Assembly: GCA_016187025.1 (NCBI GenBank)
Contig: JACPKM010000004.1
Coordinates: 99,637-163,636, forward strand
Direction of reading: 5' to 3'
DNA: 64,000 nt
Origin: Candidatus Daviesbacteria bacterium
GTDB taxonomy: Bacteria; Patescibacteriota; Microgenomatia; Daviesbacterales; UBA10151
Below are positions 3,968 to 41,794 of this stretch, in pieces. The position numbers and the translations under genes were made by a program. Numbering within the stretch: position 1 is the stretch's first letter; each line of letters opens with the position of its first letter. The notes below the pieces were generated by a model. The model saw nothing but the letters and a program-made list of their open reading frames with translations, was not told the DNA's origin and searched no databases.

Positions 3968-3991
3968 AAAGGAGGTGTTTTTTTAAAAAAT

Positions 3992-4189
3992 ATGTCAATA
4001 ATAGTTAAAGCGGGTCCGAACGATTCAACAGATGCAGTAATAAAAAAGTTTCAAAAGCGGGTAATTGCTGAAGGTATTGTGCAAGAGATTCGCGACAGAT
4101 CTGTTTATAAAAAACCTTCACAAATGAAACAAGAATATTTAGCAGAGAAACGCAGAAAGATTAAGCGTTCGAGACGTTTGAATAGGTAA
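3992..4189 (+). CDS. rpsU: 30S ribosomal protein S21
   Basis: A 65-aa basic protein with the KRRKIKRSRRLNR tail typical of S21. Confidence 0.85.
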   Translation: MSIIVKAGPNDSTDAVIKKFQKRVIAEGIVQEIRDRSVYKKPSQMKQEYLAEKRRKIKRSRRLNR

Positions 4190-4191
4190 AA

Positions 4192-4635
4192 ATGCTTACA
4201 GAAAAAATCCAAAATGATTTAAAAGAGTCGTTAAAGAGTCGTGATCAGGTAAAGGTTTCTACCTTAAGGATTCTTTTGGCAGAAATTAACAATACTAGGA
4301 TTGCAAAAGGCATAGAGCTTGCAGATGAGGATATTATTTCTGTAATTCAAAAAGAGGTCAAGAAAAGAAAAGAAGCAGCAGAGGGTTTCCGCTCTGGAGG
4401 TCGGGAAGAGTCTGCTCAGGTGGAAGAGCAAGAACTGGCTGTTTTAGAGTTTTACCTACCAGCACAATTATCAGATGAAGAGTTGACTAAAATTGTTGAA
4501 AGCACTATAACTGAGGTAGGAGCCAATTTGATTTCTGACATGGGTAAAGTAATAGGTTCGGTTATGGGAAAAGTCAAAGGTAGGGCAGATGGAGCAAGAG
4601 TAAGTGCTTTGGTTAAACAGAAATTATCAAGCTAG
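4192..4635 (+). CDS. yqeY: GatB/YqeY domain protein
   Basis: The LKESLKSRD...VSTLRILLAEI pattern matches the YqeY family. Confidence 0.75.
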   Translation: MLTEKIQNDLKESLKSRDQVKVSTLRILLAEINNTRIAKGIELADEDIISVIQKEVKKRKEAAEGFRSGGREESAQVEEQELAVLEFYLPAQLSDEELTKIVESTITEVGANLISDMGKVIGSVMGKVKGRADGARVSALVKQKLSS

Positions 4636-35500: not shown

Positions 35501-36286
35501 ATGCCTGTCCGTTTAAATCAAAAAGGAATAGCTCCGGTTGTCATAATACTCATCTTGGCTGTAACTGTCATTGGGGGTTTTGGTGTTTATAAATCAAGTA
35601 AAAAAATAAGCATCAGGGAGGATAAAACAACCGAAACAACAGGGGGTAATCTATATCCAAAAACTCCAAGCTCTAATACAATAAATTTGGCAAATAGCGG
35701 GAGTTTGGCTGCTAAAGCTGTTGAAGTTAGTGTTGATGAAAAATCACCCGAGGCTCCTAGGTTTTCTATTAAGCCTCCTGCAGGTTGGGACAGCTTGAGC
35801 GCAAATGGGAGCATAGTCATAGAATTTCTCTCTCCTGCCAAAGATACAATAGAAGAGGGTTTAGCTTATTTTGATATTCAGCCTAATATCACTGTTTTTG
35901 TTGCTAAAGGGGATTACGAGAGCTTGGATGAGGCAAGTAATGCTTTTGGAAGTAAAACCAGTGAAAATATCAGCAAACAAAAAACCACTATAAATGGGCA
36001 GGAAGCAATAGTAACGGAATCAACAAAAGATGTTTCTGGTTTATTAAGAGATACGCTTGAGCCTCAGATTAAGCAGGAACTTACTAAAGCGGCCACCAAA
36101 ATTTCAGAAAAGGATTTGCATAATGATGTAGAGAAACTTTTAAAACAGGCAAAAGCAAAGGTCATAAGTTACTCATTTTACAAAGATGGATATTATATTA
36201 ATGTTGCGGGTAAAGCCTTAGAAATTTTTTGGGATAAACGTGAGGTGCAGCTTAAAAAATCAATGGATACTTTTAAGTTAGAATGA
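35501..36286 (+). CDS. Hypothetical exported protein with an NQKGIAPVV-hydrophobic N-terminus
   Basis: MPVRLNQKGIAPVVIILILAVTVIGG, followed by a soluble domain. Confidence 0.5.
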   Translation: MPVRLNQKGIAPVVIILILAVTVIGGFGVYKSSKKISIREDKTTETTGGNLYPKTPSSNTINLANSGSLAAKAVEVSVDEKSPEAPRFSIKPPAGWDSLSANGSIVIEFLSPAKDTIEEGLAYFDIQPNITVFVAKGDYESLDEASNAFGSKTSENISKQKTTINGQEAIVTESTKDVSGLLRDTLEPQIKQELTKAATKISEKDLHNDVEKLLKQAKAKVISYSFYKDGYYINVAGKALEIFWDKREVQLKKSMDTFKLE

Positions 36287-36290
36287 TTTT

Positions 36291-36368
36291 ATAAAATGGG
36301 AGGCGTTGCATATAATACGCAGTCATATGTTCGTTTCTCCCCAGTGATAAATGCATTTTATCATAAGC
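36291..36368 (+). repeat. ~80-nt structured repeat, copy A (GGGAGGCG...hairpin...CGTTTCTCCC, then TGATAAAT...ATTTTATCA)
   Basis: About 85% identical to 41679-41757. It contains a GGGAG/CTCCC outer stem and an internal hairpin. Confidence 0.8.
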
Positions 36369-36900
36369 TTCAGCAATTACTGCTTCAAAGGATGGGGAGA
36401 ATTATGAAGCATTAGTATTTATTGATGGTTTACAAAAAAGTGAGGTTAAGAAAGTAGCCACTGGTTTGAGAAGAATAGGAGTACATACAGAAAAAGTCCG
36501 TGGACTTAGAGATGAAAGTGATGAGTTTATAAGGTTAATGGATGCAATTGCAGGACTAATTAGAGAAAATGAGGAAGGCATACAATATGCAAAAAAACTT
36601 TACAAACTAGGTTTAGAGAATAAAACGCTTATTACTGTTTAAAACCAAAGAAAAACCCACATAGCTTTCGCCAGAGGTGGGAACAACCTAGTTCTTTCGA
36701 ACACCCGCCAATACTGGTAGTATTCGGTTGCGATTTAGCTGAATTTTACCATATTTCATTTATAACGCAAATTTATGTGTGAGTGAGCTGACCACATAGG
36801 TAACATCTGATGCAAAATATTGTAGCAAGGGATGAGTTTGGAGGAATTCTACATTCAAAGCCTCCTCGATTTACAATTTAATTGGTATACTGTCAGTATT

Positions 36901-37990: not shown

Positions 37991-38263
37991 TTATTTAAAC
38001 TGAATTTGAAGAGTGGTATTAAGGGCTGTTGCTAAACGTTTCAGAAAAGAAATAGATGGTGTAGTGTTTGCTCCTTCGAGACGTGAAATCGCTGATTGTC
38101 CGGTATGCAATTTATCTGCAAGTTGCTTTTGAGTAAGACCATTTTCGATACGGGCACGGATTACTGTTTTGGCAATCTCGAACTCAACCCGGGTTTCATC
38201 ATAGAGTTTTTTAAACTCAGGATTTTTTAGTAATTTTTGTTTGTGTTTTTCAAAATCATCCAT
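37991..38263 (-). CDS. XRE-family HTH protein (HigA-like antitoxin)
   Basis: HTH LTQKQLADKLHTGQSAISRLE, located immediately downstream of the toxin-like gene. Confidence 0.7.
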   Translation of the reverse strand: MDDFEKHKQKLLKNPEFKKLYDETRVEFEIAKTVIRARIENGLTQKQLADKLHTGQSAISRLEGANTTPSISFLKRLATALNTTLQIQFK

Positions 38264-38301
38264 GGTATAATATTATCACAAAATTGTAATATTGCAAGGT
38301 A

Positions 38302-38646
38302 TCAATTTTGATCTTTTGACTGATACTCAACCAATCTTTTTAGCGCAATATTTATTTCCTTTTTATCGGTTTTCTGCTTTTTCTTTTGAAATCCATAAAG
38401 GAAGAGAAAAACTTTACCTGTATGGGTAACATAGAAAATACGGATACTGTCCTGTCCTACAATCCGGAGTTCCCATAAAGTTGTTCCTACTACTTTCTTT
38501 ACGTGGGGCAGACTCAAACTAATTCCATATTCTTTAAGTAAACCAATTGTATCGAAAACCTTAATTTGCGCTTTTACCTCTAATTCGTCAATAAATTCCT
38601 CAACAGGAGAGTTTTTACTTGTGGTTTTGTAATATTCAATTTTCCA
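38302..38646 (-). pseudogene. HigB/RelE-like (Gp49-type) toxin gene, apparently frameshifted near the start
   Basis: Translation gives W-KIEYY...PVEEFIDEL...GTTLWELRIVGQDSIRIFY...GFQKKKQKTDKKEI, a Gp49/HigB-like pattern. The only upstream ATG is out of frame by +1 (ATGGAAAATTGA); the first in-frame start is a TTG at 38517. Confidence 0.5.
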
Positions 38647-38708
38647 TTAATCAATATTTAGTTTAAAAAAAAGACTATAATTAAGAAGGTAAAAATGAAT
38701 AAGTAGGA

Positions 38709-39221
38709 GTGTTAGTGAAATTATATAGATTCAGCCCTATTAAAACTAAAGATGAGTTGTTTGAAGCTATTAAGCACATTCATCTTGAGTCATACAAGCT
38801 TTGCAAACAATCATTTGGTCACTATCTACCAAATGCTGGAAATATGGGAGTATTTTGTCACTATAATGACGAATTTGAGTTTCTCATAAACCTTGGAAAA
38901 GAATTAACTGACCTCTCTGATAGTGTTTATCAAAAGTATTTCCGGTTACATAAGCCAATTATTATTTCACCTCAAGGTGATATTCCGGAAACTACCTATA
39001 CTTACCTATATATAAGAAAACCGGATCCATATCGCTCTCACGCTGGTGATGCGGATTTTTATTTGGAACTGGAAAAATATGCCGAGCTTAAGCAAGCTAT
39101 GTTAAATGGCAAGAAAATAACAGGCGCCAGAGTATTAGAGAGAGCTGACCCGGATATGATTGAGCTATATGATCCTGATATAGATGTTTTAGCCTATGTG
39201 AGTACAAAAAAAATGACGTAA
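38709..39221 (+). CDS. Hypothetical protein (170 aa) inserted between ruvA and ruvB
   Basis: ORF with a GTG start after AGGAG; no recognisable motif. Confidence 0.45.
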   Translation: MLVKLYRFSPIKTKDELFEAIKHIHLESYKLCKQSFGHYLPNAGNMGVFCHYNDEFEFLINLGKELTDLSDSVYQKYFRLHKPIIISPQGDIPETTYTYLYIRKPDPYRSHAGDADFYLELEKYAELKQAMLNGKKITGARVLERADPDMIELYDPDIDVLAYVSTKKMT

Positions 39222-40401: not shown

Positions 40402-40430
40402 TTGACAACGGCTAGTTCATAGAGTATTGT
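40402..40430 (+). promoter_or_regulatory. Candidate promoter TTGACA-17nt-TATTGT
   Basis: A -35/-10-like pair upstream of the 40457 gene. Confidence 0.25.
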
Positions 40431-40456
40431 TAATACAATGCTATCAACAAAGGGAC

Positions 40457-40852
40457 ATGCAAGTTAATGCTATGAAATTTGAGCCATTTCAAGGTAAACA
40501 TAAAAGATTCAGCCGTAATTCGATAAGCATTACAATAGTTTGCGGTATTGGTTTTAACTCTGGTTTTTATTTCAGAAATAAAATTGAAAATTTTGATTAC
40601 GTGCTTTTATTTTTCGACAAAGAACAACAAGCAATTGGGTTCCAATTTCTAAAAGACGGAAAAGTTCCGGGAGTATTAAAAATAAATCATGAGCCAAGAG
40701 GTAATTCAGGATCTACCTCGGCATCAGCTTTTTTCAAAGCTTATGATATTGATGCTAAAACTTCTAAGGGTAGGTATGAACCAAAGGAACACGTCGATCA
40801 AAAATTAGGCAAGATATTCTATATTTCCTTAAAAGAAAAAATTAAAGAGTGA
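40457..40852 (+). CDS. Hypothetical protein; first gene of a three-gene nuclease operon
   Basis: ORF with the start placed at an ATG with an AAGGGA SD. The ORF-track start is a TTG at 40427. Confidence 0.4.
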   Translation: MQVNAMKFEPFQGKHKRFSRNSISITIVCGIGFNSGFYFRNKIENFDYVLLFFDKEQQAIGFQFLKDGKVPGVLKINHEPRGNSGSTSASAFFKAYDIDAKTSKGRYEPKEHVDQKLGKIFYISLKEKIKE

Positions 40853-41124
40853 AGACTAGCTATTATCATATAGATTATATTAATCAGCTACCTACATTTT
40901 CTGGCATTTATTGGTTATTTGAATCAAGCAACGGAATATTAAATCTTGTTTATCTTGGTAAAAGCCGAAATATACGACAGCGATTAAGAGATCATAGTCA
41001 ATCAAAATCACATAGATTTGATTTTTTTACTTATGAATTTTACCCAGAAAGAAAATTGAGAAAGAAATGTTATCAGATTATAAACAAAGATTCGAACATT
41101 TACCTAGATACAATAAACAATTAG
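40849..41124 (+). CDS. Small GIY-YIG nuclease domain protein
   Basis: SGIYWLFE...LVYLGKSRNIRQRLRDH (GIY...YLG...R...H). The GTG start overlaps the upstream stop (GTGA). Confidence 0.65.
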   Translation: MKTSYYHIDYINQLPTFSGIYWLFESSNGILNLVYLGKSRNIRQRLRDHSQSKSHRFDFFTYEFYPERKLRKKCYQIINKDSNIYLDTINN

Positions 41125-41137
41125 GTTAATTCTACTT

Positions 41138-41674
41138 ATGGCAAAAAAAGAGAAGAGATCAAAAACAATGAAAATTTATGCTTTTATTGATAGTCAAAAT
41201 TTAAATTTAGGGACAAGCAAAGATATTTTTCATGGAAGGAAACTAATTTATAAGGGCTGGAAACTAGATTTTAAAAAATTTAGAAAATATTTATCAGATA
41301 AATTCCGTGTAGACAAGGCGTTTCTGTGTATTGGATATATAAAACAGAATGAGAAATTATATAAGCACCTCAAATCTTTTGGATATGAACTTGTATTTAA
41401 GCCTACAGTGAAAGATAATCAGGGTAAATCAAAAGGCAATGTTGATGCAGAATTAGTTTTGCACGCAGCAGCAATACAATTTTCTGAATATGATAGAGCA
41501 GTAATTGTATCAGGAGATGGTGATTTTTACTGCCTGTATGAATTCTTAGAAAAGAACAAAAAGTTATTTAAAATCATAATCCCAAATAGGAAATCAGAAT
41601 CTTCCTTACTCAAACAATTCCAGGATTACAAGATATTTTTGATTAGGGATAAGGATAAAGTTGAAAGAAAATGA
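41138..41674 (+). CDS. NYN/LabA-like (PIN-fold) predicted RNase
   Basis: IYAFIDSQNL...GNVDAELVLHA...VIVSGDGDF are the acidic motifs of PF01936. Confidence 0.7.
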   Translation: MAKKEKRSKTMKIYAFIDSQNLNLGTSKDIFHGRKLIYKGWKLDFKKFRKYLSDKFRVDKAFLCIGYIKQNEKLYKHLKSFGYELVFKPTVKDNQGKSKGNVDAELVLHAAAIQFSEYDRAVIVSGDGDFYCLYEFLEKNKKLFKIIIPNRKSESSLLKQFQDYKIFLIRDKDKVERK

Positions 41675-41678
41675 GCAA

Positions 41679-41757
41679 ATAAAATGGGAGGCGTAGCAAT
41701 ATGACACGTAGTCATATGGTCGTTTCTCCCTAGTGATAAATCTATTTTAACATAACA
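41679..41757 (+). repeat. ~80-nt structured repeat, copy B
   Basis: Matches 36291-36368. Its inner hairpin is ATATGAC-ACGTA-GTCATAT. It ends 37 nt upstream of the ychF start. Confidence 0.8.
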
Positions 41758-41794
41758 AGGGGTAAAAATTCAATATCATGAATATAAAGAAAGG

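Follow-up and report, generated by a model that had tools for sequence, protein, structure and literature searches.

The DNA directly downstream of ruvB in a Candidatus Daviesbacteria bacterium (contig JACPKM010000004.1, positions 99,637 to 163,636; this whole stretch of 64,000 nucleotides is here called the window) raises the question of whether three small, closely spaced genes make up one nuclease system. They encode a protein of unknown family (ORF1; ORF, open reading frame), a GIY-YIG nuclease (ORF2) and an NYN/LabA-like nuclease (ORF3, the NYN gene). An earlier note, made from the sequence alone, had read them as a coupled three-gene operon of the sort seen in defence or abortive-infection modules. 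We found the locus to consist of two independent accessory modules, lying side by side between ruvB and ychF. One is a cassette of about 730 bp with its own promoter (40402–41129), holding ORF1 and the GIY-YIG gene; the other is the NYN gene together with a convergent small RNA (sRNA) gene on the minus strand, adjoining the NYN stop codon, that the earlier note had missed. The reading that we favour, if only slightly, is that a free-standing homing endonuclease, since decayed, settled at the 5′ end of an NYN–sRNA module that resembles a toxin-antitoxin system.

That the trio is not one unit was seen when its members were followed through relatives. Using a collection of 5.8 billion protein clusters, we found three close relatives of ORF1, five of the GIY-YIG protein and at least 8000 scored candidates for the NYN protein, the best 120 of which were 73–100% identical and came from Daviesbacteria, Levybacteria, Curtissbacteria, Shapirobacteria, Blackburnbacteria and Parcubacteria. 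The ORF1/GIY-YIG pair occurred in four other contexts (homologous loci being numbered L001 and so on) and was in none of them followed by NYN: its 3′ neighbour was a DUF3800 gene in L003/L004, a convergent DUF3800 gene in L010 and an unknown gene of 208–230 codons in L001/L002, and in L009 the pair was followed by an AEP fragment and BrnT/CopG. NYN stood without the pair in 21 of the 23 distinct loci with a readable upstream region and the trio in the remaining two; a third NYN locus, L046, keeps only a remnant of the GIY-YIG C-terminus. NYN homologs were found in many unrelated neighbourhoods without the pair, and NYN together with the sRNA recurred in more than 35 loci, most of them lacking the pair. 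A five-way DNA alignment of the window with L001–L004 gave about 85% identity from the −35 box to the GIY-YIG stop codon, where the homology ended, exactly between the GIY-YIG and NYN genes. The pair and NYN thus occur apart from each other in relatives, an outcome that the earlier note had itself named as contrary to its claim of a trio, and these co-occurrence data largely refute the three-gene reading.

The constant partner of NYN was the sRNA gene. In an alignment of NYN loci from three candidate phyla, the approximately 60 nt 3′ of the NYN stop codon were more conserved than the gene itself, and a pattern scan of metagenomes yielded 39 sRNA loci, having NYN or a remnant of it directly upstream in all but three (two without an NYN match and one ended by the contig edge). 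All of the 35 distinct sRNA loci carried a σ70-type promoter at a fixed distance, with 8–12 of 12 consensus matches, mostly of the extended −10 type TGnTAnAAT and with spacers that were not conserved. The element is built of a 5–6-nt leader, a 46-nt extended hairpin and a U-run on the minus strand, with 96% of the cells of the hairpin alignment being paired and a fold z of −3.3. Judged by these features it is predicted to be an independent sRNA gene of about 60–65 nt with its own promoter and terminator, presumably expressed as such. The NYN ORF extends 10–20 nt into the sRNA gene in seven loci, as determined from ORF ends and motif coordinates, and the two transcripts would therefore be complementary at their 3′ ends.

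Other identities for the hairpin were considered. Rfam release 15, including the DUF3800-I to -XI models, gave no match at gathering threshold in the window and nothing over 41675–41745 even at E ≤ 10, whereby a known RNA was rejected. A peptide gene was rejected as well, the frame from an internal ATG varying from 14 to 89 codons without being conserved, and the consensus of an integron attC site was not evident by eye. Pairing in trans between the sRNA and the NYN mRNA gave a best duplex of −26.5 kcal/mol, no better than the shuffle mean of −27.5 kcal/mol. The phage, plasmid and viral collections searched gave no close match to ORF1, the GIY-YIG protein, NYN or the sRNA, and an origin from such elements was rejected on that ground. 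As a separate observation, the apical loop (41705–41711, minus strand) reads CUACGUG, and CUGCGUG in many loci, which is superficially like the anticodon loop of tRNA-Arg (ACG/GCG) and would suit a decoy for a tRNA-cutting RNase; since position 37 would be a U and the stem has 7 bp, this is no more than an idea.

The NYN protein itself is a member of the NYN/LabA-like family. Pfam agreed with the earlier domain call (1.2e-14), PDB entry 2qip was matched at 9.5e-10, and the acidic active-site residues D18, D103, E105, D127 and D129 are intact and invariant in homologs, which favour either the ATG at 41168 or that at 41138 as the start, both being possible. Sequence comparison indicates that NYN is under strong purifying selection, its amino-acid identity being 86% in a genome pair in which that of YchF is 58%, and its four-fold-site identity 0.49 where YchF has 0.27. 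LabA-like NYN proteins constitute a very large family, and up to the classification of 2017 (PMC5499597) none of its members had been investigated as a nuclease. With that family (COG1432, PF01936, PDB 2qip) the protein shares a clear sequence match and four or five conserved acidic residues, and it differs in belonging to a tight subfamily specific to the candidate phyla radiation (CPR), comprising at least 120 clusters of 73–100% identity, with the sRNA as constant neighbour. An association with an sRNA was not described for LabA-like NYN proteins in the literature searched.

The association between gene and sRNA is asymmetric. With a covariance model built from the sRNA element and used to test the loci, the sRNA was found adjoining the NYN stop codon in all seven loci that had been found through the NYN protein. 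In about 10 of the 34 assessable sRNA loci, NYN was frameshifted, internally deleted, 5′-truncated or absent, with the sRNA and its promoter intact. An RNA that is sometimes without the protein, together with a protein that in these seven loci is never without the RNA, is the signature of toxin and antitoxin. We propose that the two genes (41138–41773), one for the NYN RNase and one for the convergent 65-nt hairpin sRNA, which has a promoter and a terminator of its own, would work like a toxin-antitoxin, or addiction, pair, with NYN as the putative toxin and the sRNA as its antitoxin. NYN would be held back by the sRNA through cis-antisense pairing with the 3′ end of its mRNA or, alternatively, through binding of the sRNA as a decoy.

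The window also holds a second, orphan copy of the sRNA (Table 1), having one mismatch and one G·U pair in its inner stem. NYN seems to have been cleanly deleted at this site, because in L005 a homolog of the gene that here precedes the orphan is followed by NYN and the sRNA. Between the orphan sRNA and ruvC lies an open frame of 78 codons at 36406–36642 on the plus strand (EALVFIDGLQKSEV...LITV*), with no start before a TTG at 36466 and no Pfam match, probably the remains of a gene. A further observation concerns L051 (551–1554) and L052 (933–1754), where a divergent NYN paralog (187 aa, 29% identical) lies 5′ of a 46-codon remnant of the conserved NYN, followed by an sRNA that is intact, as if one NYN had been exchanged for another and the sRNA retained.

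Several points weigh against an addiction pair. The search that exposed the degenerate NYN copies was seeded with the sRNA, and the reverse direction rests on the seven protein-seeded loci. Covariation in the hairpin is minimal, with one pair showing AU/CG/UA exchanges, because the sequence is nearly invariant, and complementarity of the sRNA to the NYN 5′ region was none beyond chance. NYN moreover adjoins ychF in Daviesbacteria, Blackburnbacteria and other lineages, and this synteny, as well as the strong purifying selection, would also fit a housekeeping RNase.

NYN would in that case be an RNA-processing enzyme of Microgenomates, acting for example in rRNA or tRNA maturation, and the hairpin, rather than belonging to a selfish module, would serve in regulation or termination, or as an sRNA that is its substrate or cofactor. 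Action in tRNA or rRNA processing has indeed been proposed for bacterial NYN proteins (PMC5499597), and a housekeeping role would agree with a protein better conserved than YchF though its four-fold sites have largely diverged, with the position beside ychF and with the absence of copies from the phage, plasmid and viral collections. It agrees less well with the decayed or deleted NYN of about 10 in 34 loci, one of them in this genome, with a genomic location that varies between lineages and with a guanine plus cytosine (GC) content 10–15 points under that of the flanks. The four-fold identity above that of YchF suggests, in addition, a common ancestor more recent than the host genomes, and the 5′ flank of NYN is a hot spot for selfish nuclease genes. 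We keep a housekeeping enzyme as a serious, if fairly unlikely, alternative.

An addiction pair of NYN and sRNA can be compared with three kinds of known systems. Type I toxin-antitoxin systems include those with 3′-overlapping convergent antisense RNAs, such as txpA/RatA and bsrG/SR4 of Bacillus. Like these, the pair has a small RNA gene that converges on the protein gene from a promoter of its own, a transcript that would be complementary to the 3′ end of the mRNA of the protein gene, and orphan RNA copies that outlive the protein gene. It differs from them in having a soluble NYN nuclease of 168–178 aa instead of a small hydrophobic peptide, in an overlap of 0–20 nt of coding sequence plus the 3′ untranslated region and in an RNA that is nearly invariant, loops included, which points to recognition by a protein rather than simple antisense pairing. 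In the type III systems (ToxIN, CptIN and TenpIN), a tandem-repeat RNA lies upstream on the same strand, with a terminator in between. An endoribonuclease-type protein with a small structured RNA encoded alongside is common to both, whereas the RNA described here is a single hairpin on the opposite strand and downstream, with no tandem repeat array upstream, and NYN is unrelated to ToxN. The NYN–sRNA pair accordingly lacks defining features of both type I and type III systems.

The third comparison is with DUF3800, which associates with 11 unrelated RNA motifs (DUF3800-I to -XI) of unknown function (Weinberg et al. 2017, PMC5737381). There too a small protein gene of unknown function goes closely together with a neighbouring structured RNA, which can have either orientation and in many cases a terminator of its own, and DUF3800 holds the position equivalent to that of NYN beside ORF1/GIY-YIG in L003/4, L010 and L013; the protein family is however NYN and not DUF3800, and the RNA matches no Rfam DUF3800 model. 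The DUF3800 genes that adjoin ORF1-family or GIY-YIG genes are those at 2986–3708 of L003, 1888–2367 (minus strand) of L010 and 4715–5353 of L013, and the Rfam DUF3800 models gave no match in these three loci. Neither Rfam nor the literature searched, including that on NYN in CPR/Patescibacteria, yielded a description of the NYN–sRNA pair, and we regard this module as the more interesting result of the analysis.

Turning to the cassette, its copies of about 85% identity were found in Daviesbacteria, Levybacteria and other contigs, with sharp boundaries, and an ORF1-family gene overlapped the start of the GIY-YIG gene in all five independent GIY-YIG loci. Between the window and L002/L003, the four-fold-site identity of the cassette was 0.54–0.81, with that of YchF being 0.27, or saturation, for two of these lineages. 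The amino-acid identity was only 65–84%, and codon positions 1, 2 and 3 changed at similar rates. Four-fold identity so far above that of YchF, yet with such low identity of the proteins, indicates a recent horizontal transfer of the cassette under relaxed or diversifying selection.

The copy in the window has probably lost its nuclease. ORF2 matched the Pfam GIY-YIG family PF01541 at 2.6e-6 (28.1 bits, cut-off 22.6) along what is a catalytic domain only, and the domain named in the earlier note was thereby confirmed; the minimal size that it had ascribed to the nuclease did not hold, the 91-aa product being a frameshifted copy of a 96–97-aa protein. The N-terminal 68 residues are authentic, with the motifs SGIYWLF, VYLGKS and RQRL (containing the conserved Arg) that are kept in five homologs, and the C-terminal 23 residues are out-of-frame sequence. 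All four homologous loci have 10 bp that are missing from the window at 41052/41053. The segment EKEMLSDYKQRFEHLPRYNKQLG, now in the +2 frame, carries the conserved Glu and the Asn of PRYN, the consensus of the homologs for this C-terminus being IEKEMLSDYxQRFxHLPRYNKQLG; the two catalytic residues are in frame in the homologs P0125–P0128 and not in the window copy. With its catalytic Glu and Asn thrown out of frame by this deletion, the window protein would be a GIY-YIG nuclease by descent that is probably inactive, unless the deletion is an assembly error.

The fold and the kinship of ORF1 were analyzed by profile and structure. In an exhaustive profile search the family comprised 474 clusters at E ≤ 1e-3, of which 132 reached E ≤ 1e-10; their length was almost always 120–140 aa, and the clusters searched had no Pfam domain. 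AlphaFold2 (AF2) gave an unusable model from three sequences (predicted local distance difference test, pLDDT, 38) and a usable one from an alignment of 75 sequences (pLDDT 94, predicted template modelling score, pTM, 0.83), with two β-β-α-β-β halves in one compact domain. The size of the family and the quality of the model dispose of the possibility, raised in the earlier note, that this ORF is noncoding; as an unknown protein it was correctly described, with no Pfam, NCBIfam, PHROGs or PADLOC match. A profile search of the PDB gave AbrB as the sole match, weak and not significant at E 0.68, and Foldseek found nothing significant there, the best template modelling (TM) scores being those of plant B3 domains (0.42–0.50, Foldseek probability 0.47). 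Among predicted viral structures, Foldseek matched uncharacterised phage proteins, in some cases inside proteins of 230–310 aa; for Gp105 of Lactococcus phage KSY1, E was 5.8e-6 and TM 0.60. An internal duplication had no backing in the sequence (5% hhalign probability for the N-half against the C-half), and enzyme domains fused in longer family members were rejected, these having only low-complexity Q/P-rich tails. A genome scan with a narrow ORF1 alignment found three loci, none of them with GIY-YIG.

A link between ORF1 and the nuclease was provided by L043, where a single protein of 230 aa has an ORF1-like N-terminus (hhalign 97%, E 6e-11) and a C-terminus carrying the motifs GIY / YIGK / R / E / PFYN. 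The C-terminus has no Pfam GIY-YIG match and aligned to the five-sequence GIY-YIG alignment with an hhalign probability of 7.6%, yet with all motifs aligned; its assignment is thus based on the motifs. Since both domains are carried by one polypeptide, L043 indicates that ORF1 and the GIY-YIG protein act as one enzyme, with ORF1 as recognition and GIY-YIG as catalytic subunit being the simplest reading, and DNA binding by ORF1 is suggested by its weak AbrB/B3 resemblance. Of the coupled operon claimed in the earlier note, it is hence the coupling of ORF1 and GIY-YIG that stands, by overlap in five of five loci and by this fusion, and not the trio. A distant ORF1-family protein in L012 (2666–4372, the protein itself at 3989–4372) comes after an ORF of 356 aa that, with its DPPY motif, resembles a DNA adenine methyltransferase, which hints that the family can also accompany genes of restriction-modification type.

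We propose that the cassette would be a self-promoted, two-gene, site-specific endonuclease of the free-standing homing kind. In it the DNA would be recognised by ORF1, by means of a compact β-rich domain of AbrB/B3-like topology, and the approximately 96-aa GIY-YIG protein would contribute catalysis only, the two genes being translationally coupled here and fused into one in another lineage. The cassette would have moved horizontally between CPR lineages, arrived directly 5′ of NYN, in a spot held elsewhere by other endonuclease-like genes, and then decayed in this genome, with the deletion removing the catalytic Glu and Asn. Nuclease-like genes do recur directly 5′ of NYN: the split cassette in the window, the fused ORF1-like/GIY-YIG protein in L043, the stop codon of which overlaps the NYN start and of which L046 has a remnant, and, in L033, L045 and L053, a gene that shares 4 nt with the start of NYN and encodes a 297-aa protein bearing a homing-endonuclease-associated repeat (PF18780, 1.5e-5, 25.7 bits, just under the 26-bit cut-off). 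This recurrence lends some weight to the linkage supposed in the earlier note, but we infer that it reflects intronless homing beside a highly conserved target and not a shared defence function. Sporadic placement beside conserved genes and closely similar copies in unrelated contexts, both seen for this cassette, are as expected of homing endonucleases. Their genes go through a cycle of invasion, fixation and decay, and the frameshift in the window together with transfer under relaxed selection is the life history to be expected of such a gene. As a further accessory or defence-like gene at the 5′ flank of NYN, L034 has at 178–1179 a 333-aa gene with weak TIR-domain matches (CAP12-PCTIR_TIR 5e-4, DUF4062 3e-3).

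Against homing it must be said that a matched empty-site allele was not recovered among the loci compared, and that the closest relatives of the cassette adjoin DUF3800 or other genes rather than NYN. Most ORF1-family members stand alone or have low-complexity tails only, and the resemblance of ORF1 to AbrB and B3 is below significance, with no sequence similarity between the halves. The layout of a small upstream gene overlapping a nuclease gene would also fit a type II toxin-antitoxin pair, with ORF1 as a putative DNA-binding antitoxin of the AbrB/MazE kind, which would control its own TTGACA promoter and counteract the GIY-YIG nuclease as toxin. That layout with its own conserved promoter, neighbourhoods rich in MazE, Fic, ParE, BrnT/CopG and HigB/Xre, the weak AbrB profile match and the inactivation of the toxin gene next to an intact ORF1, a common decay pattern for such pairs, would all suit this alternative. 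The fusion in L043, however, has the architecture of a nuclease with a DNA-binding domain, which would be unusual for antitoxin plus toxin, and the model of the 131-aa ORF1 shows one compact domain and lacks a separate, disordered tail that might bind a toxin; many ORF1-family members lack a nuclease neighbour, and no GIY-YIG toxin with an AbrB-type antitoxin was found in the literature searched. A type II pair is to our judgement quite unlikely.

A homing cassette has its nearest parallel in the free-standing GIY-YIG homing endonucleases of T4-like phages, namely the Seg proteins and the I-TevI family (described in part in PMC2988022). Shared with these are a GIY-YIG catalytic domain, to which a putative DNA-recognition module is joined as a separate part, the arrangement as a compact unit, complete in itself, between or beside conserved genes, and a sporadic distribution with near-identical copies in unrelated contexts and frequent decay. 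Seg and I-TevI proteins have the GIY-YIG domain at the N-terminus and bind DNA with a C-terminal domain, whereas in the cassette recognition would lie on the separate, coupled ORF1 and would be N-terminal when fused; the ORF1 fold is moreover no known homing-endonuclease DNA-binding domain, and the host is a CPR chromosome, not a phage, where homing is presumed from the pattern of occurrence. Regarding the fold, BfiI and EcoRII are nucleases with B3-like DNA-binding pseudobarrel domains, and AbrB and MraZ are swapped-hairpin DNA binders. ORF1 resembles these in its compact, two-half, β-rich model, with the best PDB TM score to plant B3 and AbrB as sole profile match, and, as in BfiI and EcoRII, its domain is combined with a nuclease domain; it differs in that the similarity is insignificant, with no sequence repeat and, at this locus, no methyltransferase partner.

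The least tenable reading is the original one, a three-gene defence or abortive-infection operon: a single promoter without intervening terminator, tight gaps, the L043 protein overlapping the NYN start, a low-GC accessory region and domain-level PADLOC matches would speak for it, but with the trio in 2 of 23 NYN loci, the pair in four contexts without NYN, homology breaking between GIY-YIG and NYN, relaxed selection on the pair as against strong purifying selection on NYN, the sRNA as the constant partner, a frameshifted GIY-YIG gene and no PADLOC system model matched, we judge it highly improbable, and the defence function suggested for it found no backing. In PADLOC-DB v2, no system model was matched by the trio beyond the level of domains: the GIY-YIG protein matched PDC-S14 along some 40 residues of the 300-aa model only, NYN a LabA-like model in the C-terminal third only and ORF1 nothing. 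A working three-part nuclease system in this genome is also unlikely because its GIY-YIG copy is frameshifted.

With regards to the plain description of the locus, re-reading of the window agreed with the earlier note. All three frames are present at the coordinates it gave, with the GTG start and the GTGA overlap, directly downstream of ruvB, the sRNA lying between NYN and ychF. The TTGACA-17-TATTGT promoter has 10 of 12 consensus matches, and its position is kept in four homologous loci. The variable, toxin-antitoxin-rich character of the region was likewise corroborated, with a GC content of 25–30% across 40800–41600 against 37–43% in ruvB and ychF, and with ruvA and ruvB separated by a HigB/Xre toxin-antitoxin pair and one further gene (37991–39221). 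ORF1 and GIY-YIG overlap by 4 nt, and 13 nt then separate GIY-YIG from NYN. In many other loci an extended −10 box lies 8–25 nt 5′ of the NYN start, a spot that in the window is occupied by the 3′ end of the GIY-YIG gene. NYN is here probably transcribed from the cassette promoter, and the trio is plausible as an operon in the transcriptional sense, because no terminator and no obvious NYN promoter were found between the genes in the window.

Table 1. Features of the ruvB–ychF locus and its surroundings, in coordinates of the window.
Feature	Position	Strand	Remarks
Orphan second sRNA copy, no NYN	36287–36350	−	Covariance model 72 bits; directly after 261-aa ORF at 35501–36286
Xre-type helix-turn-helix antitoxin	37991–38263	−	Between ruvA and ruvB
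HigB/Gp49-like toxin	38302–38517	−	Between ruvA and ruvB
170-aa ORF	38709–39221		Between ruvA and ruvB; no Pfam, NCBIfam, PHROGs or PADLOC match
Cassette promoter TTGACA-17-TATTGT	40402–40430	+	−35/−10 boxes kept in L001–L004; left edge of homology block
ORF1, 131 aa, member of unannotated family of β-rich proteins of about 125–135 aa	40457–40852	+	Putative DNA-binding subunit of nuclease
GIY-YIG ORF as now read, 91 aa	40849–41124	+	PF01541
Junction of 10-bp deletion	41052–41053		Alignment columns 683–692; frameshifts GIY-YIG
Former C-terminal coding segment of GIY-YIG, out of frame	41058–41129	+	EKEMLSDYKQRFEHLPRYNKQLG*
NYN/LabA-like nuclease, 178 aa	41138–41674	+	PF01936, 1.2e-14; alternative start 41168
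sRNA gene, 65 nt	41675–41739	−	Convergent with NYN, one base from NYN stop; covariance model 92.8 bits
sRNA promoter	41744–41773	−	−35 TTGAAT, 18-nt spacer, extended −10 TGtTAAAAT

Taken further, NYN and the sRNA might constitute a new RNA-antitoxin addiction module that is widespread and strongly selected in CPR, with the highly conserved NYN 5′ end serving as homing site for several endonuclease families, one of these being a split or fused GIY-YIG enzyme with a previously unrecognised ORF1 DNA-binding domain having relatives in phages; we put this forward tentatively. As the proposed operon comes apart into selfish elements of two ordinary kinds, it counts for less as a new defence system, and the 91-aa 'GIY-YIG nuclease family protein' annotated by NCBI would be a frameshifted relic. 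For the unannotated family of 474 clusters to which ORF1 belongs, the Rosetta-stone fusion gives a probable role. The cassette, for its part, points to a circulation of homing endonucleases among the chromosomes of CPR bacteria, a matter of relevance to DNA exchange between such reduced genomes. To our knowledge few sRNAs are known in CPR genomes, and to these is added an apparently unannotated and very well conserved sRNA gene. A subfamily of NYN proteins thereby acquires an sRNA partner whose promoter, hairpin and terminator are sharply defined, and this link gives a direct handle on whether the RNA binds, is cut by or silences the nuclease.

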